A stretch of DNA of 64,000 nucleotides from an uncultured Methanosarcinaceae archaeon (GCA_963833425.1 CAWHXP010000020.1:63388-127387), one strand, 5' to 3'. Positions 2,838-46,132 are shown, counted from the stretch's first letter. A program made the numbers and translations. Notes: a model not told the origin generated them from the letters alone.

Positions 2838-3557
2838 TCAAACGTTATCTCTCGAACCTCTCCATGTAGGTATATTTCCATCTATGCATTCGATTTCTCC
2901 CTTTTCTGTAAGATAATCCAGGATTTCTAGGAGCTCTTTTTTTTTGATATCTAGATCGTATCTGGCCTTAAACTCGGATATAATGTGTAGAATATCCAAG
3001 GTCCTGTTCAAGATGATCTTTTCTATAAATCCAGCAATATCTTCATACCGAGCCCACGGATATATGATCCATCGCCATTTGATAATTTTTTGGGCATAAA
3101 AGTCAGGCACATAAGTAGAACAGGTCTTGTGCTGGAGCACTGCAGTCCTTACCTCAGAGGGCTTAAGACTCCATATATAGTTCACAGCAAGGTTGAGTGT
3201 ATCACCAGTATCAGTCAAATCATCAACAATCAGCATTTTTTTCCCAGTTATATCCACAGAAATAGGGAGCCGAATATTTGACTCTGGTCGCATGTCTGAA
3301 GCTCTTGCATAATGCTCAATCCTCATTGAAATAAGGTTATTGAAAAGCAATAAATCTGAAATCAGCCTCCCAGGAACATAGCCTCCTCTACCGATGGCTA
3401 CAATTATATCAGGAGTATAACCCGATCCTCTGATTTTTCGGGAAAGAATTTTGGAAAGCTTTAATACATAATTAAAGCTTATAGCTTCGCACCTTAAAAA
3501 GTTTTTATATTCCAGAGAGCAACTGGGATGCTGTAGTTGGCTATTTTTTTCTTGCAT
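2838..3557 (-). CDS. purine phosphoribosyltransferase (type I PRT)
   Basis: IVAIGRGG and LIVDDLTDTGDT PRPP-binding motif, WIIYPW; GGAGGTGA RBS before the ATG at 3557. Confidence 0.88.
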   Translation of the reverse strand: MQEKNSQLQHPSCSLEYKNFLRCEAISFNYVLKLSKILSRKIRGSGYTPDIIVAIGRGGYVPGRLISDLLLFNNLISMRIEHYARASDMRPESNIRLPISVDITGKKMLIVDDLTDTGDTLNLAVNYIWSLKPSEVRTAVLQHKTCSTYVPDFYAQKIIKWRWIIYPWARYEDIAGFIEKIILNRTLDILHIISEFKARYDLDIKKKELLEILDYLTEKGEIECIDGNIPTWRGSRDNV

Positions 3558-4214
3558 AAAATAAATCACCTCCTGCCTATTGTCTTGTAGGTAGTATATA
3601 ATACAAATTTATGGATGATGCGAATTAGTAGTGCGTTAAAAACATAAGAACAATTAACTTGGTACTTCAAAATCTCTCATATATCTTACTTCTTCAGCTC
3701 ATGAATATAAGGCATTTTGTTCTGCTTAATTTTCTGTCTTTTTCTCTTATCAGTACAGCCCTCTGCGAGAAAATTGATATATGGTATATGTTAAATATTT
3801 TATATAAAGATAATACTAAAAACCTTACATTAAAGTCGAAAAATCGCTACACTTTGTATTCAAAGTAGTGAATGAAAATCTTTAACCCGTGAAAAATGGG
3901 AACTGCTTAAAAAAAGTTTTTTTAGATTTCAAATGGAATGGTTACTTTAAGCAATAAACTGAACGAAAAAACATTTAATGCCTGTACTAAATAACATAGG
4001 CAATGCATAATTATTTTGGAATAATTTCCATGGCAGTTTCCTAATTTTGTGCCAATATCTATGAACAACAAACATCAAGCCTTTGTTTCGGGAAGAGTTC
4101 ATCAACTCAAATTATTTGAATCAATAGCTTCAATATCATAGTAGCAATATAGAAGGCTACAGAGAGTACTCAAAAACAGAAATTTAATGAAAGCTCACTA
4201 AGGAGAACATTTTT

Positions 4215-4682: not shown

Positions 4683-5706
4683 AATTTCATGCGATTCCTT
4701 CCTTTCTACCGATAAATAACACGGATAAAAACAATTTTTTATATTCAAAATCCAATTGATCCTTAATGTCATCATATGGTTTTGATCCTGTATCCGTGGA
4801 AATAATTTGCAAATGATGCTAAAAAGTAGTATATGAAAAATGAAACGGATAATCGGAAAATTCCTGTTCATCCTCCGACCTGAAGTTCCATATGCTCAGC
4901 TTAAGCCAGCTAGGATCTATTAATCCAGTTATTTTTTGAGGAACCTGCAGTTTAACAACTATCATAATGTTCATTATTAGGAGTACTTCTACATTTTTTG
5001 ACAGGTACCTTCTTTTCCAAAACTCTATTTTCTGCTTTCTTTGTTTAATTCTCTTTGATCTCTACAAAAGTTAAAATTCTGGCTGTAAAGCCCTATTTAG
5101 GTGTATTACAACATAACTTTATTTTGAAAGTTTATTGTTTTCGTTGAGATTCTTAGAACCTATGTACCTGAGAAGAAAAAAAAAAACCATGAGTGGAGAT
5201 TCCTAAATATTTTTATTTTGATTTTCCTAAATTTTATACTATCGATTTCATCATTTCAGCTGCGTATTAATCCTATTTACTTTTAAGCTTAATAAGGCAA
5301 TGTATCAAAAATTTTGTAAAATCTGATTGACTCTGTATCCTTTTTCTTTCACCACAAAAAAGGTCCAAAGTCAATGGATTATGTATTCAAAATGCGACTA
5401 TTTTTGTGTAAAATCACAAATATTAGTAAATTATAAAGGAGGAAATCACATATTGGAATAATCCACCTTCATAGAATGTGCAAATATTTGACATGAATTT
5501 ATAGTAAATTCATGACAATGCCAAAAATGTAGAGGGATATCTCTACGAAATAGAATTTGGTATCAACAGGACTTACGCAGTAGAACTGAAAAATCAATAA
5601 CATTAAATCTTTAATAGTTTTAAAATGAAAAATTTAAATTAATTGTTTATTGTGTTTAATTTTGTACTTCAAGCACCCAAGTCCTGAGACGATATGGAGT
5701 TTAAAA

Positions 5707-20305: not shown

Positions 20306-22287
20306 TTACATGAATAGACTTAGTAACCTGAATGCAATACCGCCTATCATGATTGCTGTGCCTATTTCTGCTATTGTTACAGCAGTTGCTTTTCTCCATC
20401 CAAATTCTGATGCCATAGCTAGTATATTGGCTAGGCATGGAATGTATATCATGCTGACCAACGCCAATACTATTAATTGCACCGGAGTCATTATCGAGCC
20501 AAAGTTCGTAGTATGGAAAATTACAGCCAGTGTTAATAGAGTCATTTCTTTCCTTACGATTCCGAATATCAACAATATACCAGATACTGCTGGCAATCCA
20601 AGCCACCAGACAGTTATCGGCATTAGTGCATTATTAATCGGAGTTAGTACTCCAAATGCATATAATGCTTGCACTGCAGCACTGCCGATTATGTAAGCTG
20701 GGAATACGATCATAATCAATGATTTGGTGCGTGCCCACGTCTGTTTGAGTATAACGCTGAGAGAGGGTACGTGATAATCTGCCATCTCTATGATAAGACC
20801 AACAGACTCTCCAGGCATTACTTTGAATGCTATGCGACCTACCACGATAATTAGCAGTATATCAAATACATATAGTGCCAGACCCCACCAAATACTTACA
20901 AATGTGGCTACCAATCCTAAAATAACGATAGTCCTCGCCGTGCAGGGTATTAGTGTAACCAGGTAGGCTAAGAGTGTTTTTTGCTTCGGGGTTTCCATTA
21001 TCCGACAAGAGTAAACCGCTGGCACATTGCACCCATACCCGAGAATAAGGGGAATTACTGCCTTACCATGCAATCCAAGCTTATGCATACCGCGATCGAG
21101 CATGAATGATATTCTAGTCAAGTATCCAGAATCCTCAATAAATGCAAGTATTAAGTAAAATGGTAGTCACATACGGGATTATGAGAGTTACTCCGGCTAC
21201 AAATCCGGTGAAAGCTCCATTCCATATGATATTTTCTATGGGACCTGTAATGACTGGTTCATACTGCTCTATCGCAGTTAAAAAGTCTTGTATAAAGTCC
21301 GAAACACGGGCGCCTATGAGGAACGTCCAGATCAACAGCCCCCCAATGACCATGATAGCAGTCACATATCCCAATACTGGGTGCAGAGCGATATTATCCA
21401 AGGTTTCTGTCAACGTTCTTTTTTTCACTCCTGACATGACGTCCCTGAAGACCTCGTGAGCAATCAGATCAGCTACATGATAGCGTTCACCTGTGATCAC
21501 TATTCCAGATGGCTCACCATGTATCTTCTCGATCTCGTCAGCCAGTGAATCAGCTAACATGGGAACATTCGGGTCAGCCTTTTCGAAGAGGCTGCGAATC
21601 TCAGCATCTTTCTCGATGAGTTTGATAGCCATCCACCGTGAAGGATATCCAGTTTTTACATTGCCCATGGCTGCTATAAGCTTCTCTAAGCGCTGCTCTA
21701 TTTCTTGACCATATTTTATTTTGTTTGGAAGTTTTTTATTTTCGATTGCATCGATGATTATTTCTGTCAGTTTATCGATACCAATTCCCTTGATTGCTAC
21801 AGTGGTGACTACAGACACTCCCAGGAATTTCCTCAAGTTTTTTAACATCAATGGATAATCCTTTTTTTTCCATGAGGTCCACCTGGTTGAGTGCCATGAC
21901 CATCGGTACGCCTAATTCAATCAGTTGTAGTGTGAAAAACAAATTTCGTTCCAGTGCCGATGCGTCTATGACATTTACGACTATATCCGGCTTTTCAAGA
22001 GCGATGAAATCTCGAGATACGATCTCTTCCATTGAATATGTGGAGAACGAGTATATTCCTGGCAGGTCGATTATCTTGATCCTCATACCTTTATAATGCA
22101 ATAATCCCTCGGCACGCTCTACAGTCTTCCCCGGCCAGTTGCCTATTATCTGATCCACGCCAGTTAATTGGTTAAATATGGCACTCTTACCCACGTTAGA
22201 GTTCCCTGCAAGAGCAACCACCCTTTTGAAATCTTTCATTTTTTTAGATGCGGAATCACACTGCCCACAACTTTTACATCCTGCCAT
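20306..22287 (-). CDS. feoB: ferrous iron transporter FeoB (split by two frameshifts near 21825 and 21168)
   Basis: GNSNVGKS, DLPGIYS, NQVD GTPase motifs; EDSGY and GYGCNVPA gate motifs. Confidence 0.9.
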
Positions 22288-24246: not shown

Positions 24247-24281
24247 ACCCTAACAAAATAAAGAGAAGGAAAATATTACTA

Positions 24282-24830
24282 TTAGAACTGAACCTTTACA
24301 GGCTCTCTTTCCTTAGACTCAGTCTCCAGATAAGTCCTTGTCTTCTTACCAAGTATTCCAGCAAAAATAGAGCCCGGTAGAGTAGTAACCAAGTTATTAA
24401 AAACAAGCACACTGTCATTATAGTGCTGCCTTGCATAAGCAACCTTATTCTCAATTCCAGAAAGCTCTTCCTGAAGCATAAGGAAATTCTGATTTGCCTT
24501 AAGTTCTGGATAATTTTCGGCTATTGCAAAAAGCGATTTAAGAGTCCCAAAAAGCATATTTCCAGCTTGATCCTTTTCTTCAATCGTCTTTGCGCCCATC
24601 ATCCTTGCTCTTGCATCAGAAACAGCCTCAAAAATTGATTTTTCATGCGCTGCATAACCCTTCACAGTTTCGACAAGATTTGGCACAAGGTCAGCCCTTT
24701 TCTTCAGCTGAACATCAATCTGAGCCCATGAATTATCTATTGTGTTAGAAAGCACATTAAGTCTGTTAAAATAATACACAAAGACTAGCACAAGTACCAA
24801 CAGTACGCCTAAAACGATATACTCCATCAT
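24282..24830 (-). CDS. lemA: LemA family protein
   Basis: IDVQLKKRADLVPNLVETVKGYA, AENYPELKANQNF. Confidence 0.95.
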   Translation of the reverse strand: MMEYIVLGVLLVLVLVFVYYFNRLNVLSNTIDNSWAQIDVQLKKRADLVPNLVETVKGYAAHEKSIFEAVSDARARMMGAKTIEEKDQAGNMLFGTLKSLFAIAENYPELKANQNFLMLQEELSGIENKVAYARQHYNDSVLVFNNLVTTLPGSIFAGILGKKTRTYLETESKEREPVKVQF

Positions 24831-24928
24831 ACAACTACCTCACAATATGTATATAATCTACTATCTACTACATCCAACTTTCTACAGGGTTGGATAGTTC
24901 ACTTATCTTAAGCGAAGTATAAGTTTTT

Positions 24929-26248
24929 TCAAAAAAAGTCTAACTTTGTAGACCTTGCTAATGGCCTTTTTAATTTTGACAAAACAATAGATTCAACATC
25001 AGTGTAATTATTTTTAATTATCTCGATATCCTGAATCTGAAACAAAGTTTCAATTACAGCCTCGATATCATTTGGCAAAGTTATATACCTAATATTACCC
25101 CGGCCTTCACGATACTCCGCATTAATAAGCTGTCTTGCAGAAAGAGTTGTTAATCGTGTTGATATGTATGTTTCGCCGTTTGGCTTTTGCTGTAAAAGTT
25201 CGCAAATTTTACGATATGTTACTACTATAACACCAGAATGTGCAGGAGTTTTTGAATTAGTTTGTTTGACAACATTATTAGCGATATAAACGGACAATAT
25301 CAAGTATTTGTCATGTAATGACATCCTTTTCAACATATCTATTGTGACTCTATCATTGACTACTTTTTCTGCCATATCTATATGTTCACTTGTAATTTTT
25401 GAGCCCTTCGTTTGGATTACAATTCTAGCAGCTTCGGCTAATATGTCAATGGCACGTCTAGCATCTCCATGATATCTATCCGCAACATTTTTAGCACAAT
25501 ACAAAATTACGTCATCAGAAATTACACCATCTGCAAAAGCATCTTTTCTTAACTGTAAAATTTCATACAATTCTTTATCATTATAATCTGGGAAATCACA
25601 ATACCTGAATCTTGCAGATGATTGCACTTTATTATTAAGTGTAGCTAAGAAGTCTTTTTGATTCGAGGCTGTTATAATTTCTATTGCTACATTACTCGAT
25701 TTTATTTTTTGATGTGCAAGCGCTCTACTGAACTGATAAAGGATATTGTCAGGTGATACGAAGGCATCTATTTCGTCAAAGAACAGAATTAATGTGTAAA
25801 ATGTATGTTCATGAGCTTTTTTATCTATTATAGACCAGATATCATTTAGATACTGATAAAATTGTCTCCCAGTTTGCATAGAGATGCCAGTTAACTGAGT
25901 CAATATTTCCACACACGCTGGAATTTCAGAAGAGAATGCTGTACAATCTATTACAACCGTATCAATTAGTATGTCTTTATCCTCTGCTTTTAACCCTTCA
26001 GTCAGGATTCTTAAAAGATATTTTACTGTGATTGTTTTGCCAACACCTGTATCTCCCCAAATATACATGTTACTAGGCTCACCCTGTCTCAAAATTGCAG
26101 AAAGATTATGGCCTATAACCTCCATTTGTTCATCTCTGGCAATTACAGTGTCAGGAACGTATCTACTATTTAGTAGATGCTCGCAAGCTATAATAGGACT
26201 AGCAGGGTCGAAAAACCTTGTATACGGCACTCTAATCTTATCTATCAA
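24929..26248 (-). CDS. cdc6: Orc1/Cdc6 family replication initiator
   Basis: Walker A GDTGVGKT, Walker B FFDEID, HGDARRAID, C-terminal winged helix; TTG start with GGTGG RBS. Confidence 0.92.
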   Translation of the reverse strand: MIDKIRVPYTRFFDPASPIIACEHLLNSRYVPDTVIARDEQMEVIGHNLSAILRQGEPSNMYIWGDTGVGKTITVKYLLRILTEGLKAEDKDILIDTVVIDCTAFSSEIPACVEILTQLTGISMQTGRQFYQYLNDIWSIIDKKAHEHTFYTLILFFDEIDAFVSPDNILYQFSRALAHQKIKSSNVAIEIITASNQKDFLATLNNKVQSSARFRYCDFPDYNDKELYEILQLRKDAFADGVISDDVILYCAKNVADRYHGDARRAIDILAEAARIVIQTKGSKITSEHIDMAEKVVNDRVTIDMLKRMSLHDKYLILSVYIANNVVKQTNSKTPAHSGVIVVTYRKICELLQQKPNGETYISTRLTTLSARQLINAEYREGRGNIRYITLPNDIEAVIETLFQIQDIEIIKNNYTDVESIVLSKLKRPLARSTKLDFF

Positions 26249-26370
26249 TATACCACCTACTTATTACATAGTCTATTTTAACATATAGAACTTACGATTT
26301 GAGAAGATATGATTGAAAGTACTTTTTTGACATCATGCGACACTATTAAATAACTACTTTCGATTGAGAT

Positions 26371-26746
26371 ACTTTCACTCGACCCCCTCCCCCCCTCCGC
26401 AAGTAATATAGTAGTTGTTGCAGGAAAAGAAAATAAATTTTTTGAAGCTTGTATGGATAAATTGTGATAATTTAGATTTTATTAGATATCTACTTATACT
26501 ATTAATTTCATAACTCTACAACAAGATATTTTTGATATATATCATTTTATCTGATAGATACCTTTTAGTCTCCAAACAAGCATCATAACTTCCTGAACCC
26601 TACCTACTATTAATATAAAATATTTCTATAAACCCCTATTTTTGGCTGGTCACTTATAAAGCTTGTATAAGCACTTTGGTGGAATTGGAGTTTGATCTAA
26701 CGTCTCTATAGTACCTTTGAGGGGGGAGGGGGTATTTAGTGAAAGT
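26371..26746. other. candidate replication origin (inverted G-string elements around an AT-rich core)
   Basis: ~41-bp imperfect inverted repeat at 26371-26411 and 26706-26746, lying between two divergent cdc6 genes. Confidence 0.6.
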
Positions 26747-26934
26747 TCTTGGTTTTTGTAAATTGAAAGTACAGTCAACCGATGCGCCTTCCAAAATCTA
26801 TATAGATCAAAAGAACTTATTTTAACCCCAACAGGATTTAAATTGGATGAATCTACTTCCCTATACAGGTACGCTGCCCTAGAAAAGAATGGGGCTGAAG
26901 CAGCTTGGAGCAAGTTAATAACTATCACAACTTT

Positions 26935-27170
26935 AAAGGCAGAATGAACTGGTAAACGTGTAGAGTTTGTTGACCCAAGAAATACATCTCAAATGCGCTC
27001 TGGATGTGGTAGAATAATGAGAAGAATTATCAGACAGAACATATAGTTATCTTTTCTGTAGTTTGATAGTGGATAGAGATTATAATACCGTCATTAGCAT
27101 ACTATGACTGGGATTCTAATTTGTGGAATGAGCCTAAATGCTAGTGGCTTCAGTCATGAGAGTCGCCACT
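26935..27170 (+). pseudogene. tnpB: IS200/IS605 tnpB 3' remnant with right end
   Basis: KAE*TGKRVEFVDPRNTSQMRSGCG...DRDYN, a degenerate zinc-finger/RuvC-III region. Confidence 0.75.
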
Positions 27171-27823
27171 AAATCTTCAATCCTATTAGTTGCTTTTGTT
27201 GGCAATAGTGTCTGTGTGGTTTAACGCTAAGTATTGAATTTTTCTCCCTAGACAAGCATCAGCGTTGCAGGTGGTGGATTAAAGCCTTCAACTTTATATA
27301 ATTTTTAAGGTAGAATATGTATATATAGCTATAGTTCTTTATTTAATTAGATAACTATCAAATACAATCTCGATCAATGGAGCTATTTGTTTGTGCACTC
27401 CACTACCATTTTGTACCATGCGCAAAATACAGAAGAAAACCTATTTATGTTCAATAGATAGTGGATTTACTGGAATCTAAAATTCATGATACGCCTTCTT
27501 AGAAGCGTGTTATGATTTGTGATTGCGATACCTATATTGATAGGGATCGAAATAGTTCTATCATTATTAAGCCATGTTTCCTACCCCAAAATACAGATGG
27601 AGGGGATATCAATAACTTGTTGACCTTCGATAATATAGAATTCCCGATGGACATTAAATTTGAGAACAGATGAAGGAATTGCTCGAAGGAATTCCCTTCT
27701 TCGGAGGGTATCAACTCGCTAGAGGGGAGAAGTTCACACTTATCCACGTGAATTGTTTATTTGTTGGTTATAGAGTTATTTTTCCAACAAAATTTAAATA
27801 CAACTGCCAACAATTAGCATACG

Positions 27824-29083
27824 ATGATTTCTGAAGACACCGAGATAACTGATTACGAAGAAATTTTTGAAACACGTCAAACAAAAATTTTTAAAGATTC
27901 TAGTGTGTTATCTCCTGATTATATTCCCAAAAAGCTAATTGGACGAACAAAAGAAGTATTGGAACTTGCCAAGGTCTTCAAGCCGATTGATTATAAGGGT
28001 TATCCGTTCAATGCCTTAATTTTTGGGAAAACTGGTTCTGGCAAGACAGTTGTAACAAAGTTCCTACTACAAAAATTGATGGAACGACTTGAAGCGACTC
28101 CTAATATCATGGATCATCATATTCAATGTATCTATATCCAATGCAAGACCAATTGTACAATAAATGGGGTATTAAATGAGATCATTAAACATGTAGATCC
28201 AGCAAATAAAATGCCTCGAAAGGGTTTTGCTCTTGGTTACTATTATGAAGAACTCTGGAATGTAATAAAAGAAAAAAGTGTGTCACTTGTAGTTGTGTTC
28301 GATGAGATAGACCGCTTAAAGGATGATGAAATCCTTTACAATTTAAGTAGAGCTGGAGAAATGCAAAAGCTGCCAGAAAGGCATTTTATCTGTATAATTG
28401 GAATTTCTAATGACCTTGATTATGGTAAGGAGTTAGATAGCCGGGTTATTTCTTCAATGAGTCCGAAAGATCATGTTTTTGCTCCGTACAATGCAGAGCA
28501 AATTATTATGATTTTGAATGAGCGTGTAAAGATAGCTTTTTGTGATGGCGTTGTGCCCCAAGAAACAATCAATTTATGCGCTGCTTATGCGGCTCAAGAT
28601 CACGGAGATGCTAGAAAAGCCATAAAGCATCTGAAAATGGCTGCTGTATATGCAGAAGAGAATGATTTTTCTCAAGTGCTACCTGAACATGTAGAGGCTA
28701 CTTTAGAAAGTTTAGATGTCGATAGGATTCAGGATATGGCAACGTATCTTCCACTACATGAAAAAATTGTTCTTCTTGCTATTTTAAAACTAACAAATTA
28801 TGGAAATCCAAGTACTAACTCTCAAACTGTAACTAGTTTGTACAATCAGATGTGTTTTGAAATTCATAAGAAGCCACTGCATCGAACAACAATAGCTAGT
28901 AAATTTGGAGATTTCAAGATGATAGGCCTCATAAAAACCTCTTCCGTGAGAAAGGGGAAGGGTGGAGGATGGAAAGATATTAGGCTATCAGTTCCTTCAG
29001 GTAGTGCAATTGAAGAAGTATTATATCAGGATTATAATTTAGAGATGTTGAGGGATTTCAAGCCTGCTCCATTTTCAAATTGA
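27824..29083 (+). CDS. cdc6: Orc1/Cdc6 family replication initiator
   Basis: IFKDSSVLSPDYIP, GKTGSGKT, VFDEID, HGDARKAI. Confidence 0.93.
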   Translation: MISEDTEITDYEEIFETRQTKIFKDSSVLSPDYIPKKLIGRTKEVLELAKVFKPIDYKGYPFNALIFGKTGSGKTVVTKFLLQKLMERLEATPNIMDHHIQCIYIQCKTNCTINGVLNEIIKHVDPANKMPRKGFALGYYYEELWNVIKEKSVSLVVVFDEIDRLKDDEILYNLSRAGEMQKLPERHFICIIGISNDLDYGKELDSRVISSMSPKDHVFAPYNAEQIIMILNERVKIAFCDGVVPQETINLCAAYAAQDHGDARKAIKHLKMAAVYAEENDFSQVLPEHVEATLESLDVDRIQDMATYLPLHEKIVLLAILKLTNYGNPSTNSQTVTSLYNQMCFEIHKKPLHRTTIASKFGDFKMIGLIKTSSVRKGKGGGWKDIRLSVPSGSAIEEVLYQDYNLEMLRDFKPAPFSN

Positions 29084-29494
29084 GGAAAGAAAGACTATGT
29101 AGGTATTGAATATTTTGCAGTTATTTCGACAGGAGATAAAATTGAGAATCCTAAATATCTAAAAAATTTTCTGCAAAGATTGAAATATCTACTGAAGAGA
29201 GTTTCATCTAAAATAAAAGGTTCAAATAACCGCAATAAAGCTAAATTGCACCTTTCAAAATCTAGACCAAAAAGATTATTACAGAGATCGAAAATATTTA
29301 GGAAATCAGGCAAACATTTTTGAATAAGCAAAAGAAAATTAGCTCCCGATTTTCGATATCAATAACTATTTTGCAAAATAAATCCTTTAAGAGAATTCAT
29401 CCTATCTAGAAAAAATAGCAATAGGTTTTGTTGAGTTTGGGATTATGACAGCGGATAATGGAAACTTGGTCATTTAAAATTTAAGTAAGTGAAT

Positions 29495-29870
29495 TTACCA
29501 AAATCTCCACCACGGTTTTTTAGCTCCAGGTGCTTCTATAGCTTTCTGATTGATGAGAGTTTGGACCTGTAGAACATGTTTATTGTACATTTCAATCAGA
29601 TCCTCTTTATCCTTCTTTAAGTCCTCTATCTGATTTTGTGCTTCTTCCAATCTTTTTTCCATTTCTGGAAATCGTGCTTCCTGGTTGCTTCCCAATGTTC
29701 CGGATTGCTTCCTAATGCTTCCTGGTTGCTTCCCAGTTCCTGATGTTCGATAAGCTTTTCAAATGCTGTAATTACGGCCTTTGTGGGGCTATCATATCCT
29801 AATGCTTCTACTTTCTTCCAAAGGCCTCCGGGACACCAAACATTGATTTTGTGTTTTCTTCCGCTGTCAT
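29495..29870 (-). CDS. RHH-like DNA-binding/coiled-coil protein ending KKPWWRFW (DUF3967-like tail); two 1-nt frameshifts
   Basis: Reconstructed: KHKINVWCPGGLWKKVEALGYDSPTKAVITAFEKLIE-(LGSNQEA-type)x3-coiled coil-KKPWWRFW. Confidence 0.7.
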
Positions 29871-29899
29871 GAGGAAGTTTTAGGAATTAATTCAATATG

Positions 29900-30680
29900 A
29901 AACTTCCTACATTTCCTACTGTTTATCAATATTTCCTAATGCTTCTCTATTCTTTTTTCGCTTGCAGTTCTTATTTTCTTCCCGATGCTTCCTATATTTC
30001 TCCCTCATGCTTTCTATATGACTTCCTATTGTTTCTGGATTGCTTTCTTGTACTTCCTATTTTCTTCCTGCTTTCTGCTCATTTCTTCTTATTTGCTTCC
30101 TAATTCCTCTTAAATACTTCTATTGCTTCTTTATTTTCTTGCTTCTATTTTCTTCCTAATGCTTCCTCTATATCGCCTTCATGTTTTCTATACGGCTTCC
30201 TATTGTTTCTGGATTGCTTTCTTACTTCCTACTTGCTTCCTTATTCTTCCTATTTGCTTCCTGCTTTCTGCTCATTTCTTCTTATTTGCTTCCTATTACC
30301 TCTTAAATACTTCTATTGCTTCTTTATTTTCTTGCTTCTATTTTCTTCCTTATGCTTCCTATATATCGCCTTCATGTTTTCTATATGACTTCCTATTGTT
30401 TCTGGATTGCTTTCTTACTTCCTACTTGCTTCCTTATTCTTCCTATTTGCTTCCTGCTTTCTGCTCATTTCTTCTTATTTGCTTCCTAATTCCCTCTTAA
30501 ATACCTCTATTGCGTCTTTATTCGCTTGCTTCTATTTTCTTCCTTATGCTTCCTATATATCGCCTTCATGTTTTCTTATGGACTTCCCATTGTTCCTGGA
30601 TTGCTTTCTCTTACTTCCTATTGCTTCCTATTCTTCCTAATTGTTTTCTAATTCATCCTGGATTAATTCCTAATACTTAC
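29900..30680. repeat. pyrimidine-rich tandem array: ~4 units of 174-194 bp built from ~10-11-bp phased CTTCC motifs
   Basis: CTGGATTGC anchor at 30035, 30209, 30402 and 30596. Confidence 0.9.
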
Positions 30681-30945
30681 TAATTATTTCTAATTGGCTA
30701 TGTGTCTACTTGTCTGTAATATAACAAATTTCAAGAATTTTTTGAGAATGAAATTCCACGTTTAGTATTGCTTGTTTACGAGACATTTTCTTATTTTCTG
30801 GGTTTTTGATTGATTGCAGTTAATTGACGGTGGAATTAATGGTAACTTTTTGCGATTCCCGAGATATTAATAACATAATTTTAGGCAAAAAGGGTGAACT
30901 TTTAAGCTTATAGAATTTTTATAATAGAAGATTCAATTAGATTCA

Positions 30946-31983
30946 ATGGAAAGACTTGTAAAAATGGTAATGGCACTTTTAACCATTATCCTCCTAACTG
31001 CAGTTATTGTTTATGCAACACTTCCTTATATAAACTATTTTTTAGGGGCCTTTATCCTTTACATTATATTCAGATCCATTTATCATTTTTTGTAAAGAAA
31101 ACCAGGCTCAATAAACAATTAGCGGCAGTTTTGGTGATAATTATTTCAATATGTGTTGTACTCATTCCATTGTATTTTCTCCTAGGTATAATTATTAATG
31201 AAATACAACAGCTTTTACTTAACCAGGCTTTATTATTACATCTATTAGATCTGAAAACCAATTTCTCACTACTTATCTTTCAGGGCTGGGTATTCCTACT
31301 GATGTTCTCCAAAAACAGATACAAGAAAGGGTTATGAGCATTGGTTCTGAAGCTGTCAATTACACAAGTAAGTTCATTCTTGGTTCAATTCAGATATTGA
31401 GCCAGCAGTCTATAGGCCTCTTAATTATGTATTTTTTGTTTTACTACCTCTTAACAGGAGAAGATTCTATTTTTGCACACAAAATTTATGCGGCAGTTCC
31501 ATTCAATGAAGAAAAACATCCACTCTACTGGACGAGTTCAGAAGAATTGTCAGGACAACTATGATTTCTAACGGGGCTATAGCCCTTTTTCAGGGTGCAA
31601 TTCTGACTATCACTTTTTTGATCGTAAAAATTCAGGGAGCTTTTCTCTGGGGTTCTATTGCAACACTCCTTTCTTTTTTGCCAGTTTTCGGATCAACTTT
31701 AGTCTGGGTTCCTGCAACAGTTATTGAGTTTCTACTGGGAGATTATACTGCAGGGAGTGCTATTCTTGCTGCAGGGATATTTGTAGGTGTAGTGGATAGT
31801 TTTCTTAGGCCCATGATCCAGAAAAGAGTTGGAGAAATACATCCTTTTCTATCTCTTATTGGGATTATCATAGGAGTATCCCTTTTTGGATTGATCGGAA
31901 TCATTATAGGCCCACTTCTCCTTTCCTACTTTATTCTGACCTTAGAAATGTTTTCCAAGGAGTACCTTTCTGAGCTGAAGTAA
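30946..31983 (+). CDS. AI-2E family transporter (several frameshifts)
   Basis: SFLPVFGSTLVWVP, DSFLRP, HPFLSLIGIIIGVSLFGLIGIIIGP. Confidence 0.8.
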
Positions 31984-32340
31984 AAATATAATTGTGAGGG
32001 TATTAAATGAAAGACAGACAAAATATAGGGGTGGCTAGCACAAATAATGTTATAAGCCAAAACCAGACCACAGACACAATAACAGTGGACTTTTATGATG
32101 GTATAGTAAATAAAAATAGACGGAGTTACGCTAGTAAATTCGGTCCGTGGCTTGGATAAGTAACATTATGGAGATCCACTTAAAATTACAACTTAAGCGC
32201 GAAAACTGCAATTTCTAAACTCAGGTGCACTCTATGTCATGATGGGAAGCAAAAACCTTGCTATATTTACCTCACGTAGGATAAAAAATAAATGAAAATT
32301 AAATGACTATCCAACTTACAAATTGGTTTATCTAATCTAT

Positions 32341-33977: not shown

Positions 33978-33998
33978 ATATTAACACCTTGTTAATAT
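33978..33998. promoter_or_regulatory. candidate toxin-antitoxin autoregulatory operator
   Basis: Perfect IR ATATTAACA-cct-TGTTAATAT immediately before the antitoxin start. Confidence 0.55.
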
Positions 33999-34005
33999 GG
34001 TATAT

Positions 34006-34218
34006 ATGGTTCAACCGATTATAAACATTGATGACTGGGCCAATAGAATTTTGAATATTATCAAAGCTAAATATGGTTTAAAAGATAAAAGTGCCGCCAT
34101 TAATCGAATGGCAGTTGAATATGAAAAAGAAATTTTGGAGCCAGAGTTAAAACCTGAATATATTGGAAAATTGAAAGGAATCAAAAAACAAAAAACGACA
34201 ACTATAAGCACTAGTTGA
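34006..34218 (+). CDS. DUF2683 family antitoxin
   Basis: MVQPIINIDDWANRILNIIKAKYGLKDKSAAIN...LEPELKPEY, upstream of a RelE-like gene. Confidence 0.75.
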   Translation: MVQPIINIDDWANRILNIIKAKYGLKDKSAAINRMAVEYEKEILEPELKPEYIGKLKGIKKQKTTTISTS

Positions 34219-34252
34219 AAACTTGAGAAATAGAAACTATTCCTTGATTTTT

Positions 34253-34518
34253 ATGTACAGTTTGGAAATCAAACCTGAACTTGATAGAAAATTTGAAAAG
34301 TTAGCAAAAAAGAATAAAAAACAATTTGAAATTATTATAACTAAAGCCAATGAGATCCTAGAAAATCCACATCGATACAAAGATCTAAGAGCACCAATGA
34401 ATCATCTCAAACGAGTACACATTGATAACATTTTGTGCTAATTTTTTCTATAAATGAAGAATCAGGAAGCGTTACACTGATTGATTATGATCACCATGAT
34501 GATATTTATAAGTACTAA
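34253..34518 (+). CDS. RelE/YafQ-like toxin (frameshift near 34428)
   Basis: MYSLEIKPELDRKFEKL...NPHRYKDLRAP...RVHI, continuing HFVLIFSI...DYDHHDDIYKY*. Confidence 0.8.
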
Positions 34519-41494: not shown

Positions 41495-42358
41495 GACAAA
41501 CGACTAATAAAAAATATATATTGAAGTGCGCTTTCAATTCATTTATTAGTAAATGCTGAAAGTGCAGAACTCTCAAATAATACCCAATCTACAGACAATA
41601 ATAATTTAATTATGGATGAGAATAAAGTTCAACATTCTGCATAAGTATCTGAGGATGATTTGCAGAAACAACGAGCACTAACGAAAAATATGCATTTTGG
41701 TGATAAAACTATTAGTTAATCATATGTTTACTGATGCACATGTGAATCAGGTAGACGGTCTGATCTTTTTAGGAAGGCATAACGAAACTATAGATGCATA
41801 TAATGAAGCACTTAAAAAATCCATTCTTGAGTGATGGAACTAAAAGTTTAATCATAGAGAAACGGAATAAACTAATGGAACAGACAGGTCAATTTGTCGA
41901 TATTCCATTGATAGACCTACAACTACTAATTACATGTAAAGGGGATATATCTATCAATAAAAATGTTGGCATAGGGATCGTATTATTAATATCGGTGGTG
42001 CTTTCTGCTCTCTTCAGTTCATCAAATTCGCATGAATCGTTATCTAAACCAATGACTATAGAACAGGAAGATGCAATTGAAGACCACAAGATTCACGCCA
42101 ATCAAAAAAAAAGTATATAGTGAATGCATGTAATGATGCAGAATGGTTTGAAAGTCAAGATGAAGACGAAGCTGCAATGGACAAATATCAAGAAATTATT
42201 AATAATTATCCTAACGAAAAGAAAGCTAGAGATAAATTCTCTCACTTAAAACATGTACAAAAAATAAGTGATGAAGAAGATAAATTATTAGAGGTACCGC
42301 CAAGATATCAATCATTTACATAATATGGGTGTATCTCATTTTCTAAGGAGATCGTGAT

Positions 42359-42574
42359 ATGGAGAACAAAATAATTCAAATTGGATTATTACTTTTAATT
42401 ATCGGAACTATTTTGATGCCAATTGCAGCTGAATCTGATTTCCCAAATAGTCCAGGTATTTATAATTCAGACGGTAGTAAGAAAAGTTATGCATAGTTCC
42501 ATTCAGAATCAAGTGATTGGAGTAACAAAGTATATGCATGGAACGCAGAACGTGATGCTAAAATGAATGTTTAA
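42359..42574 (+). CDS. small secreted protein with an in-frame TAG at 42494
   Basis: AAGGAG RBS, signal peptide; the frame stays open for 25 codons after the TAG. Confidence 0.4.
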
Positions 42575-42807
42575 TCATAAAAAGAGATAAATAAGCTTGA
42601 GTCATAGTGGATTATGTAACGTACTAAATACATTGAGTCTGGATCTAGCACGTTACCGGACTGACTTTAATTAATGGGTGAAAGATTTTGGGTTAGGGGT
42701 TCCAGAAAAACCCCTACTAAAGGCCGTTTTTCAGATAACATCAAAAATCTCCCATTATTAAGGTCGGTTCTATTTCTGGATCAACTATTAATTTTTCATT
42801 CTATGCT

Positions 42808-43101
42808 TCATTTTATGGTGTTATGGGTTCCGTCATTGTCCCCGTTTCCGTTTCCGTTTCCTATACCTACGTTTCCGTTTCCACTACCGTCTCCGTTTCC
42901 GCTTCCGACATTATTTATTGTGTTTGATTTTCCGCCGAGTCCGACAACGTTCCCGTCTCCGTTTCCGCTAAGAGCACCATTTCCAATAGTTTTAACGTGA
43001 CTAAAACTAACTGAACGACCCTTACCACCAGCGGATGCTGTTGCTGCTGTAAATGCCACTACAAGTGTTACTACCATCAAAAGGACTAATGCTTTCTTCA
43101 T
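42808..43101 (-). CDS. small secreted Gly/Asn-rich protein
   Basis: Signal peptide ending ASA; GNG repeats; AGGAG RBS. Confidence 0.8.
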   Translation of the reverse strand: MKKALVLLMVVTLVVAFTAATASAGGKGRSVSFSHVKTIGNGALSGNGDGNVVGLGGKSNTINNVGSGNGDGSGNGNVGIGNGNGNGDNDGTHNTIK

Positions 43102-43148
43102 TTTATATCGTCTCCTGTGTGTTTATTTTTGTGATTAATTTATGATAT

Positions 43149-44584
43149 TCAGGAACCTAGGGGAGCTACTGGAACGTCACCATAGCCGATAATACCATTT
43201 TTAGTATTTCCGTAACCAATGTCACTGTTACCGGTGTTACCGCTACCGATATCGTTGTTACCCTGGTTTCCGTTACCTATGTTGTTGTTACCATGGTCGT
43301 TTCCAACTCCGCTTGCAGCTACATTGTTTCCGTTTCCACTACCGTTTCCGTTTCCTATATTATTGTTCCCGTTGTTGCTTCCGTTGTTGCTTCCGGTGTT
43401 TCCGTTTCCGTTATTGTCTCCGTTTCCGTATCCTACGTTTCCGTTTCCGTTATTGTTTCCGTTTCCGTCTCCTTTGTTTCCGTTTCCGTTATTGTCTCCG
43501 TTTCCGTATCCTATATTATTGTTCCCGTTCTGGTTCCCGTTTCCGTTTCCGTTGTTTCCGTTTCCGTTTCCGTTTCCGTTGTCGTTACCTTTGTTCCCGT
43601 TTCCGTTTGTGTTCCCGTTTCCGTTTCCGTTGTTTCCGTTTCCGTTTCCGTTTCCGTCATAGCTACCTTTGTTTCCGTTTCCGTTCTGGTTTCCGTTTCC
43701 GTTACCTATGTTTCCGTTTCCGTTTCCGTTTCCATCATGGCTACCTTTGTTTCGTTTCCGTTCTGGTTTCCGTTTCCGTCACCTTTGTTTCCGTTTCCGT
43801 TTCCGTTTCCATCATGGCTACCTTTGTTTCCGTTTCCGTTCTGGTTTCCGTTTCCGTCACCTTTATTTCCGTTTCCGTTTCCGTTTCCATCATGGTTACC
43901 TTTGTTTCCGTTTCCGTTCTGGTTTCCGTTTCCGTATCCGGTATTTACGTTTCCGTTTCCGTTTCCATCATGGTTACCTTTGTTTCCGTTTCCGTTCTGG
44001 TTTCCGTTTCCGTATCCGGTATTTACGTTTCCGTTTCCGTTTCCGTCATAGTTACCTTTGTTTCCGTTTCCGTTCTGGTTTCCGTTATCGTTTCCAATAT
44101 TTACATTACCGTTAACGTTCCCGTTATAGCTGCCGCCGCCTGTCCAGCCGGCATAGTTATGATTTCCGTTTCCGTTTCCGTTCTGGTTTCCGTTTCCGTC
44201 ACCTTTGTTTCCGTTTCCGTTTCCGTTTCCGTTATAACTGCCTAATACACTGTATCCAGCACTGTTATGGTTTCCGTTTCCGTTTCCGTCTCCGTTTCCG
44301 TTTCCGTTCTCGTTGCCTTCGTTTCCGTTCCCGTTTCCGTTCCCGTTAAAACTGCCTACTACACCGTATCCAACATAGTTATGGTTTCCGTTTCCGTCTC
44401 CGTTTCCGTTTCCATTGTAGTTACCTTTGTTTCCGTTTCCGTTTCCGTTTCCGTTATAACTGCCTACTATACTATGTCTAGCACCGTGTCCAGCACTATG
44501 TCCAGCAGCTGCGACGGCAGTTGTTAATGAAATTATAAACCCCAAGACTATCAGTAGGGTCATTGTCTTTTTAATTGTAGTCAT
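43149..44584 (-). CDS. secreted Asn-Gly repeat protein, ~478 aa after restoring one base near 43752
   Basis: Signal peptide and (GGAAAC)n repeats. The span is 1436 nt, and adding 1 nt gives 479 codons ending YGDVPVAPLGS*. Confidence 0.85.
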
Positions 44585-44704
44585 AGTTATCCATCATTTC
44601 AATGATTATTCTAGATTGTCCCCATCATTAGAATGGTTTCCTCCCATCAATGAAATGATGGGTTCATATCGATTTATGTAATTTATGTTGGGAATTCAAC
44701 TTCT

Positions 44705-45040
44705 CTATTGCCAGCCATTCCCGTTTCCGTTTCCATTCCCGTTTCCGTTTCCTATGTTCCCGTTTCCATTCCCGTTTCCGTTTCCTACGCCGCGATTTCT
44801 ATAACCATTGCCATAGCCGTTACCTTCGCCGATGTTTCCATAACCATTGCCATATCCATTACCATGACCGTCTCCATCATGGCCTTCACCATAGCCATAG
44901 CCATAATGCCGAATGAGATGGCTGCCTATGCCATGTACGCCGCCATTGGCACTTGCAATAGCAATTGTTAATGAGAGTAATACTCCCATCACAATCAAAA
45001 GAGTCGTTGTCTCTTTCCCGTTCCTAGTTGATTCCGTCAA
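44705..45040 (-). CDS. small secreted Gly/Asn/Tyr-rich protein
   Basis: AGGAG RBS, TTG start, signal peptide, GNGYG and GNGN repeats. Confidence 0.8.
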   Translation of the reverse strand: MTESTRNGKETTTLLIVMGVLLSLTIAIASANGGVHGIGSHLIRHYGYGYGEGHDGDGHGNGYGNGYGNIGEGNGYGNGYRNRGVGNGNGNGNGNIGNGNGNGNGNGNGWQ

Positions 45041-45158
45041 TACAAACTCTCCTTAGTATACACTCGTAAGTAACGTGTGTCTTATTGTTAGTTCACTATG
45101 GGAGCTTGATGCTATCTGGTGTGCATTTACATGCAAATATAATCACAATTCTATATTT

Positions 45159-45420
45159 CTTAACATTTCCGTCCTGAAAAATAGTTTCTAAACAAAAATT
45201 CTGCTCAAAAAAAAAGTTTCGAAATTATTGAAGTTTTATCTATCTTAGTATATTCTGAACCTAACAAAATTTTCGCCGTCTAATTTATTCCTTAACATTT
45301 CCGTCTTGAAAAATACTCCTTTATCAAAAGTTTTGCTCCAAGAAAAGTGTTCGAAATTAGTGAAATTTTAACTATCTTAGTAGATTACGAAACCAGCCAA
45401 AATTTCACTGTCTAACACTA
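45159..45420. repeat. 132-bp tandem duplication upstream of the Asn-Gly operon
   Basis: CTTAACATTTCCGTCyTGAAAAATA at 45159 and 45291. Confidence 0.8.
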
Positions 45421-45621
45421 TTAAATTTATTTCATCTTGATATTGTTATATACCATGTTACTAATTGTTATTTGTCAGGTGGGTTTTTCATTGTCTTCCT
45501 ACCTGTCCCCTTAGTTTGGGTAAAACTACTGCATCAGTGACTACATATCCCCCTGGACTTAAGTTCACCTTAATCCAGGAGGATACTTTTATACAGAGTT
45601 TTTGTGGTAAAATCTATGGAA
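45389..45621 (+). repeat. ~230-bp non-coding two-hairpin unit ending in a 31-bp site (copy 1)
   Basis: Direct repeat of 47022-47255; site ATACAGAGTTTT-TGTGGTA-AAATCTATGGAA at 45591-45621. Confidence 0.85.
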
Positions 45622-46132
45622 CAAGGAAATCTAAAAATCCTGTTTTTTAATAAAAGAAAAGAATGAGAATAATCATCTTTACAGAACTTTTAATACATTA
45701 CCATTTAATCAGAATAAATAGCAAAGGAATTCATTTAATTGTTCTTTGACTGTGAAATATTTAATGCGGCATTATTTTTTTTTTAGAAACTTTTTTTCGT
45801 ATCATTAATTTAAAATAATTACGGTGGCAAAAATGAACATCACCAAGCATGTATATCATCAGCACATAAAATGATAATAGAATGTACAACACCACATCCT
45901 TTCAGAGATAAATTTAGATGATTAATTGGTAAACCGATGATTCAGTACTTATGAAGACGCGGTTATTTCAAAATCAGCATCCTTAAAATTGTATGGAATT
46001 GAATAAAAATAAGTGTATAATTAATAGGAAAACAAACATTTGATACAACAAAAAATGGGACTGAGTATTTTAATAGTAATCTTTTTTTGTAGTTATCCTT
46101 AAGCATTAAATATCTGAAAAGACACTGAGAGA

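Follow-up and report, generated by a model that had tools for sequence, protein, structure and literature searches.

A candidate NTPase-free origin-to-membrane tether: a coiled-coil protein family and its GGAAG motif array beside the probable oriC of a Methanosarcinaceae archaeon

Introduction

RocS of Streptococcus pneumoniae, Par of plasmid pSK1 from Staphylococcus and RacA of Bacillus subtilis are bacterial proteins that tether or position DNA. pSK1 Par occupies repeats that precede its own gene, and RocS is active close to the origin. All three are described as consisting of an N-terminal DNA-binding domain, an oligomerising coiled coil and a C-terminal membrane or anchor element, and as acting without a dedicated NTPase, with RacA binding repeated centromere-like sites (PMC11500499, PMC13042908). 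In the account given of RocS, a single helix is insufficient for membrane binding and prior oligomerisation through the coiled coil is required; pSK1 Par is described as having the same coiled-coil/membrane module (PMC11500499). By analogy, the archaeal locus reported here appears closest in logic to these three proteins, with a different DNA-binding domain.

A second group, which the protein of this locus resembles as a likely array binder of the ribbon-helix-helix (RHH) type, consists of RHH proteins. ParG, omega of pSM19035 and ParR of R1 and pSK41, from partition systems of type Ib and type II, are RHH proteins that serve as both autorepressor and centromere binder. RHH centromere binders occupy arrays of short direct or inverted repeats upstream of their own operon, where neighbouring dimers touch. 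These proteins work with an adjacent ParA or ParM NTPase, whereas no such gene is present at our locus; they are not known to have a coiled coil or a membrane tail, whereas both are predicted for the family described here. An archaeal RHH protein, SegB of Sulfolobus, is described as binding specific sites and forming a chromatin-like higher-order complex for chromosome segregation, and SegAB is presented as the only archaeal segregation system with structures (PMC8682754). SegB partners the ParA-type ATPase SegA via its N-terminal tail, whereas the DNA analysed here carries no SegA-like gene. PDB profile searches with the new family returned no SegB-named entry.

The DNA in question, hereafter the window, is a stretch of 64,000 nucleotides from an uncultured Methanosarcinaceae archaeon (GCA_963833425.1 CAWHXP010000020.1:63388-127387). 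Like RocS, pSK1 Par and RacA, the protein encoded there is predicted to have a small N-terminal domain, a long coiled-coil helix and a short C-terminal tail. It also has repeated sites upstream of its own gene and near a probable origin, in this case 29 exact motifs that are predicted sites. The differences lie in the parts. While the three bacterial proteins carry a MerR-type winged HTH (PMC11500499), the domain here looks RHH-like, with two predicted helices after an extended strand, and no HTH or MerR match for the family was obtained in Pfam or PDB. DUF536 (PF04394), the C-terminal domain of RocS, was not detected in any of 19 members (Pfam, E ≤ 0.01); the position of the DUF536 block is occupied by a conserved block of the family's own, NNYMLQVQTLINQKAIEAPG. 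The tail is Trp-rich (KKPWWRFW) and not a MinD-like helix, save in two of 80 proteins. Finally, the family is archaeal, whereas RocS, pSK1 Par and RacA are bacterial.

Results

Over 24271-32100, the window shares synteny and about 90% of its DNA letters with L001, a contig of a Methanosarcina MAG. L001 is one of four related loci (L001-L004) that were obtained by a pattern scan for the close subfamily in one genome per species, covering 185,579 species. The features of the window that are needed for the following description are:

24929-26248, minus strand: cdc6-1 (Pfam), divergent from cdc6-2; 98.4% identity to the L001 protein
26249-27823: probable oriC between cdc6-1 and cdc6-2, a role read from gene order and ORB-like repeats
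26371-26411 and 26706-26746: inverted pair of 41-nt G-string elements of the ORB type, within the probable oriC
27824-29083, plus strand: cdc6-2 (Pfam Cdc6_lid and Cdc6_C); 96.4% identity to the L001 protein
29498-29870, minus strand: broken family gene, in three frames with two 1-nt deletions; N-domain profile match with E 4.8e-25
29498-29674, minus strand: coiled coil with conserved block YNKHVLQVQTLINQKAIEAPG, then the basic-aromatic tail KKPWWRFW
29675-29736, minus strand: heptad linker of LGSNQEA-type repeats, with the second frameshift inside
29737-29856, minus strand: N-terminal domain (N-domain), candidate DNA-binding (KHKINVWCP strand, helix, GYDSP turn, helix)
29871-29910, minus strand: putative promoter/operator with AGGAAGTTTC, TATA-like TTTCATATTG, ATTCCTAA, and CTTCCTC directly before the ATG
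29911-30700, minus strand: array of TAGGAAGYA-type motifs, all in one direction and with a spacing of about 10.7 nt, in four higher-order units
29972-30145, 30146-30338, 30339-30532 and 30533-30700, minus strand: array units, the fourth partial
30946-31983, plus strand: AI-2E family transporter gene, divergent from the array

The family gene and the second cdc6 gene converge, as had been stated in the first-pass annotation, which was made from the DNA alone and framed the locus in terms of a plasmid. This framing had to be given up. The window contains housekeeping genes (TtuA-like, phosphoribosyltransferase, FeoB in three pieces, DtxR-like, M48 peptidase and LemA), and because these occur together with a divergent cdc6 pair around ORB-like repeats, we read the locus as a chromosomal oriC region. 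The parallel drawn with the Methanosarcina barkeri plasmid holds insofar as a Cdc6 homologue of the Wiesmoor plasmid is indeed flanked by long direct repeats, but this plasmid carries neither a family member nor a GGAAG array. Its ordinary ParA-type gene lies directly behind an array of 16 nt × 16.6.

The absence of an NTPase, also part of the earlier proposal, was borne out. A six-frame scan for Walker A motifs found no ParA-type Walker box anywhere in the 64-kb window; the motifs that were found lie in cdc6-1, cdc6-2 and FeoB, except for a single one that is in no gene. Pfam matches were obtained for 41 of the 73 window ORFs of at least 90 aa, and neither ParA nor an actin-like family was among them; no ParA-, SegA- or ParM-like NTPase gene was adjacent to the family gene in L001-L004 when the ORF lists were read by eye.

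In the window, the coding sequence of the family gene is spread over three frames of the minus strand. Frame 1 (29870-29811) begins MTAEENTKSMFGV, frame 2 (29886-29629) contains KHKINVWCPGGLWKKVEALGYDSPTKAVITAFEKLIEHQELGSNQEALGSNPEHW, and frame 3 (29758-29498) contains GSNQEARFPEMEKRL and ends with KKPWWRFW and a stop. Alignment with L001 places the first break, a 1-nt deletion, in an AAAA run near 29851. At the second break, near 29705, a G is missing from CCGG(G)AACA when the window DNA is compared with intact relatives. A database search with the middle frame as query returned 15 proteins, seven of them full-length and all seven with the KKPWWRFW end. These intact relatives (111-125 aa) share the N-domain, the LGSNQEA heptads, the coiled coil and the C-terminal end with the window gene, and the main difference among them is the number of heptads: P0001 (125 aa) has three, P0002 and P0006 (118 aa) have two, and P0004, P0005, P0008 and P0010 (111 aa) have one. 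P0001 amounts to the window protein with both breaks read through. The intact relatives join the three frames exactly as proposed, indicating that the two 1-nt corrections made in the earlier annotation were right, and the layout that it described (strand-helix-helix N-terminus, LGSNQEA heptads, coiled coil, KKPWWRFW tail) is found uninterrupted in them. Three of the 15 proteins (P0003, P0012 and P0014) have out-of-frame tails that begin in or beside the heptads.

In L001, both the family gene (118 aa) and the AI-2E gene (346 aa) are intact. In a comparison with L001, the AI-2E gene of the window is missing a single nucleotide at three places and the family gene at one, and there are zero indels in the two cdc6 genes (2,580 nt compared). 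Since evenly spread sequencing errors would not concentrate in this manner, we read the breaks as real gene decay; a local assembly error may be an alternative source. The window copy is probably a pseudogene, to judge from its frames, and with two frameshifts in the gene the module in the window is therefore probably inactive. The N-domain profile detected no second family member in the window or in L001-L004.

The array extends over approximately 830 bp upstream of the gene, with CTTCC on one strand: the plus strand of 29871-30700 contains 29 CTTCC and only one GGAAG, and 76% of it is pyrimidine. The strand-biased array that had been described directly upstream of the gene is thus present. 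In the whole window, CTTCC occurs 126 times on both strands together, compared to 95.3 ± 9.5 in shuffled sequences, and 38 of the 126 fall within 29644-30637 (37 on the plus strand and one on the minus strand). The longer motif TAGGAAGYA is found 12 times in the window, compared to 1.18 expected. All 12 copies lie within the locus and on the gene strand, 11 in the array and one in the ORF. The flanks of GGAAG on the gene strand are also biased: of 30 sites, 28 carry A at -1 and 20 carry T at -2.

Higher-order units of 174-194 bp, as claimed previously, were recovered: the units start at 29972, 30146, 30339 and 30533, giving spacings of 174, 193 and 194 nt, and the copies of 193 nt match the reference copy at 95% and 65% identity. 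The proposed helical periodicity of about 10.5 bp stood in part. Among the 28 successive CTTCC spacings, 13 measure 9-11 nt, 11 measure 29-34 nt and four measure 56-75 nt. The spectrum of the exact sites has its peak at 10.8 nt, with a power of 0.47 that exceeds the 99th percentile of 500 permutations (0.30). When one mismatch was allowed (69 sites), however, the peaks at 10.8 and 10.2 nt (0.58) fell below the permutation control (0.74). Given that units are 95% alike and that the copy number differs between genomes with 90% identity, the extra length of the array may be due to neutral expansion.

Other interpretations of this DNA were considered and rejected. The array is not read as an array of ORB/Cdc6 sites: the ORB-like G-string repeats sit between the cdc6 genes instead, and the GGAAG motif accompanies the gene at loci without cdc6. 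ORFs on the plus strand within the array (for example, 30123-30500) were read as low-complexity artefacts of the pyrimidine strand. A search of 26000-31500 against Rfam gave nothing meaningful (three matches, E 0.67-0.84), and a scan for promoters and terminators of the bacterial type was uninformative, the host being an archaeon.

The motif is also found at the start codon. On the gene strand of the window, the TATA-like TTTCATATTG lies about 30 nt ahead of the ATG, and the motifs at the start codon form an inverted pair around it; we infer a promoter role for 29871-29910. The same order is seen in the window and in L001-L004, namely AGGAAGTTTC, a TATA-like TTTC[AT]TAT about 30 nt before the ATG, and one or two CTTCCT at the ATG. 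In four of the four related loci, GGAAG motifs cluster no more than 150 bp upstream of the gene. Within the 150 nt upstream, AGGAAG/CTTCCT occurs three times in L002 (0.10 expected) and six times in L003 (0.20 expected), and in L004 this stretch holds all four copies of the locus's four. The clusters of L002-L004 cover about 110 bp, contain both orientations and are operator-like. L001 is the only related locus with a one-directional array, which measures about 250 bp; it also carries a 300-bp tandem duplication of the array, the promoter and the 5' end of the gene, with the junction inside the heptads. The idea that homologues have an upstream array of their own therefore stands for the motif cluster, present in all four, but not for the one-directional array, present in L001 only.

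The examined stretches of L002-L004 contain no cdc6, indicating that the motif follows the gene and not the origin. In these sequences, the protein family and the GGAAG motif travel together. Since L002-L004 have short mixed clusters, and the array of L001 is shorter and duplicated, the operator-like cluster is the conserved feature, and the long array at the origin-proximal locus is read as a labile expansion of it. Moreover, only four loci were found among the 185,579 species, and the close subfamily is therefore not a core chromosome function.

Beyond this subfamily, the N-domain profile matched 69 clusters at 50% identity (E ≤ 0.001), and a wider profile matched at least 223 clusters at 90% identity. 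Among the 120 matches listed, 103 were without a precomputed Pfam domain, and PF01402 and PF04394 were absent from the precomputed domains. Searches of 19 diverse members against Pfam and NCBIfam produced only sub-threshold coiled-coil matches. This is a large Methanosarcinales family without a curated Pfam or NCBIfam model. A literature search, including the available portion of PMC4158269, found no published description of it. The members follow one plan: the N-domain comes first, then a linker made up of short repeated peptides, then a coiled coil that closes with the conserved block NNYMLQVQTLINQKAIEAPG, and finally a C-terminal tail. The N-domain is the best-conserved part and has the pattern K-K-I-x-x-W-[IV]-P-x-x-L-W-x-x-[IV]-E-x-L-G-Y-x-S-P-T-x-A.

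The tails were classified in the first 80 family proteins. A basic tail with WWxFW is present in 31, and K(K/R)SFLxRLKFW occupies the same place in two. At least nine have a Zn-ribbon tail replacing the membrane-type tail, and the other ends (38 of 80) belong mostly to short or truncated entries. K(K/R)SFLxRLKFW resembles KGFLKRLFGG, the sequence described as targeting MinD of E. coli to the membrane (PMC5471200). The two relatives with this MinD-like end support the idea of a membrane tail, and the KKPWWRFW-type tail is likely to seek the membrane.

P0001 and the N-domain were modelled with AlphaFold2. The models begin with an extended segment (residues 1-14), after which come helices at 15-23/24 and 29-48/52, with a turn of four to five residues (GYDSP) between the two helices in the monomer models. 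The heptad linker of P0001 is disordered (pLDDT <50, residues 49-65), and a long helix spans residues 68-113 (pLDDT 84-94). The modelled order of the N-domain is compatible with an RHH subunit. Of the RHH fold that had been proposed, the strand-helix-helix order was thus predicted, but significant sequence or fold matches were zero. Pfam returned no RHH family at E ≤ 10 (10 members) or at E ≤ 0.01 (19 members). PDB sequence profiles gave only weak coiled-coil or uL23 matches for one query (E ≥ 0.1) and none for a second, and the best E-values of Foldseek against the PDB were 4 for the whole protein and 5 for the N-domain. An Atlas search with residues 1-48 of P0001 yielded no usable match. Among the Atlas neighbours of P0052 are clusters that carry RHH_1 or NikA-like domains, as well as bacterial clusters joining a NikA-like RHH to DUF536; with scores of 0.87-0.90, these neighbours are treated as leads only. 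The best small-domain matches in Foldseek were plant TCP domains, which one paper on these domains does not, in the portion consulted, term RHH.

The motif continues into the ORF and encodes the heptads, in agreement with the first-pass annotation. Five GGAAGCA at 29675-29735 are spaced 10-11 nt apart, and once 20. Each 21-nt heptad contains GGAAGCA twice, 11 and 10 nt apart, and the two copies are read in two frames, GGA-AGC-A and G-GAA-GCA. Gly-Ser pairs are written GGA-AGY in 10 of 10 cases (window, L001, L002 and L003) and (Gln/Lys)-Glu pairs NAG-GAA in eight of eight, counts that are not independent because the heptad copies are related; the codon usage of 12 window ORFs predicts about 10% for each Gly-Ser pair as GGA-AGY. 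Codons within the motif stay constant; codons for Leu, Asn and Ala outside the motif vary, and the non-synonymous changes (Ala to Val, Gln to Lys) leave the motif intact.

In 185 family proteins, the type of linker repeat pairs with the type of the putative DNA-reading strand:

strand KINVW: linker LGSNQE
strand KINCW: linker LGNNxE
strand K[LI]NAW: linker DIEGYKQ
strand KKIQCW: linker SPEIPxx
strand KISAW: linker GDIPETI
strand KVNSW: linker GHxTDTT

The period of the linker is seven residues in nine of the ten aligned proteins in which at least half of the linker positions repeat, and four residues in the tenth. The pairing of strand and linker types could be explained by shared descent. A further reading is that the disordered linker is a translation of the protein's own binding-site array, one DNA serving as operator or centromere and as code, with strand and linker types changing together while the period of 7 aa (21 nt, or two helical turns) is maintained; we regard this as doubtful.

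Discussion

What the sequences show is the build of the locus, the tie between the protein family and its motif, the origin setting and the way in which the array varies. We propose, tentatively, that the family protein is an autoregulated binder that coats the phased array and tethers origin-proximal DNA to the membrane without an NTPase; this is a protein that we infer to bind DNA, to contact the membrane and to act in segregation. In such a mechanism, dimers would recognise TAGGAAGYA. Near the start codon, binding on either side of the TATA-like box would result in autorepression, while the upstream sites, one per helical turn and in a single orientation, would permit cooperative coating and the formation of a nucleoprotein filament. 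The coiled coils and the many tails of this filament would provide avidity for the membrane, and the origin-proximal DNA would be held there. The device would then be an NTPase-free tether or positioner following the logic of RocS, pSK1 Par or RacA.

Part of these observations would suit a plain autoregulated transcription factor with GGAAG operators, for which the array is an expanded operator, the tail has another role and DNA positioning is absent. Such a factor would act on its own promoter as a repressor, and the divergent gene for the AI-2E transporter may be a second target. Each of the five loci has motifs on both sides of a TATA-like box near the start codon; short clusters of mixed orientation, such as the approximately 110 bp of L002-L004, are typical of operators; and the length of the array is not conserved between the window and L001. 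However, neither a coiled coil some 45 residues long nor a conserved C-terminal tail is required of a repressor, and the membrane-type tail has been kept in 33 of 80 proteins (most of the full-length ones) across classes with 30-45% identity. Furthermore, 29 exact sites in one orientation, with about one per turn over 830 bp, are far more than an operator needs. We consider this alternative credible in outline, yet unlikely. The history of the locus could also be that of an integrated mobile element, a plasmid or virus, of which a maintenance or regulatory module landed by oriC and is now decaying. The patchy distribution over four loci and their varied contexts point in this direction, the L003 relative lying beside a toxin-antitoxin-like pair and Zn-ribbon genes, as do the TnpB fragment adjoining the gene in the window, the broken state of that copy and the 5' duplicate of the gene in L001. 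Yet tblastn found no family match in 72,556 plasmids (queries P0001, P0052 and P0045) or in 50,697 phage records (queries P0001 and P0018), no integrase or other mobile-element gene adjoins the gene in the window or L001, and two genomes have the gene at the same place, between cdc6-2 and the AI-2E gene. A mobile remnant therefore seems improbable to us.

The array might also be a functionless satellite that arose as in-ORF repeats and upstream copies underwent unequal recombination and slippage, so that the likeness of the motifs is a by-product. The 300-bp tandem duplication in L001 with its junction within the heptads, the 95% likeness of units and the variation from one to three heptads among close relatives are what such a process would leave behind. 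It would not account for the enrichment of the same 6-mer at unrelated loci, where it precedes the genes of distant relatives (50-63% identity), or for A at -1 (28 of 30) and T at -2 (20 of 30) being maintained across the array, and it needs neither strict orientation on one strand nor turn-by-turn spacing. We give this explanation very little credence and retain the membrane-tethered binder, tentatively, as our preferred reading.

To our knowledge, chromosome positioning and segregation in methanogens and in most other Euryarchaeota are largely uncharted. The family described here, with at least 223 clusters, joins a candidate sequence-specific DNA-binding domain, a coiled coil and a membrane-type tail, and the locus is a testable candidate for an NTPase-free origin-to-membrane tether that parallels RocS and pSK1 Par but is built from other parts. 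If the protein is only an autorepressor, the outcome would be the modest annotation of a new regulator family. The motif within the ORF offers a rare test case for DNA under two constraints, those of a binding site and those of a coding sequence. If the linker does translate the array, a switch in specificity would rewrite the upstream array and the protein's own linker together, and the resulting membrane-tethered filament at oriC would be the first device described in archaea that positions a chromosome without an NTPase.

Gene integrity and repeats in the window, L001 and L005

The stretches listed here lie in the window, in L001 (the syntenic Methanosarcina MAG contig) and in L005 (the M. 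barkeri Wiesmoor plasmid).

Window 20306-22287: FeoB, as three ORFs
Window 26371-26411 and 26706-26746: two 41-nt elements in inverted orientation, between cdc6-1 and cdc6-2
Window 29097-29257: tnpB-like fragment of ~160 nt between cdc6-2 and the family gene
Window 30946-31983: AI-2E transporter gene, split by three 1-nt deletions vs L001
L001 4560-5160: 300-bp tandem duplication that takes in the first 55 codons of the family gene, its promoter and a portion of the array
L005 1-1416 and 31703-32000: 143-nt and 70-nt repeats on either side of a Cdc6 homologue
L005 18884-19148: 16-nt repeat in 16.6 copies, immediately 5' of a ParA-type ATPase gene

The window's two cdc6 genes are unbroken, as is a 946-aa sensor kinase. 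Across the window as a whole, coding density is low, pointing to either decaying genes or an assembly of uneven quality. A second strongly strand-skewed stretch, with AT skews of -0.26 and -0.18 and GC skews of -0.12 and -0.20, lies at 42000-46000; both strands there carry overlapping ORFs (250-310 aa), none of which gave a Pfam match. On inspection by eye, two adjoining small ORFs at 33997-34441, of 73 and 72 aa, resemble an antitoxin-toxin pair.

The 41-nt elements contain a long G/C string, and the inverted pair looks like origin recognition boxes. On the M. barkeri plasmid, the 16-nt repeat looks like a conventional centromere.

Fragments and rearranged copies at the family loci

The tnpB-like fragment matches the 3' portion of IS200/IS605 tnpB genes from Methanosarcinales plasmids at 69-73% identity, and in L001 its place is taken by 37 nt. 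The junction of the L001 duplication was found within the heptad DNA, and the event left a truncated, 56-aa copy of the family gene (P0007).

Pieces of the family were also observed in the related locus L003, where a 62-aa ORF (4908-5096) carries the family's C-terminal block (FAHYFKSLEYKRLEA) without the N-domain. A truncated family gene at this locus is followed by a 145-aa Zn-ribbon gene (3345-3782); in other family members, a Zn-ribbon like the one encoded separately in L003 is fused to the C-terminus.
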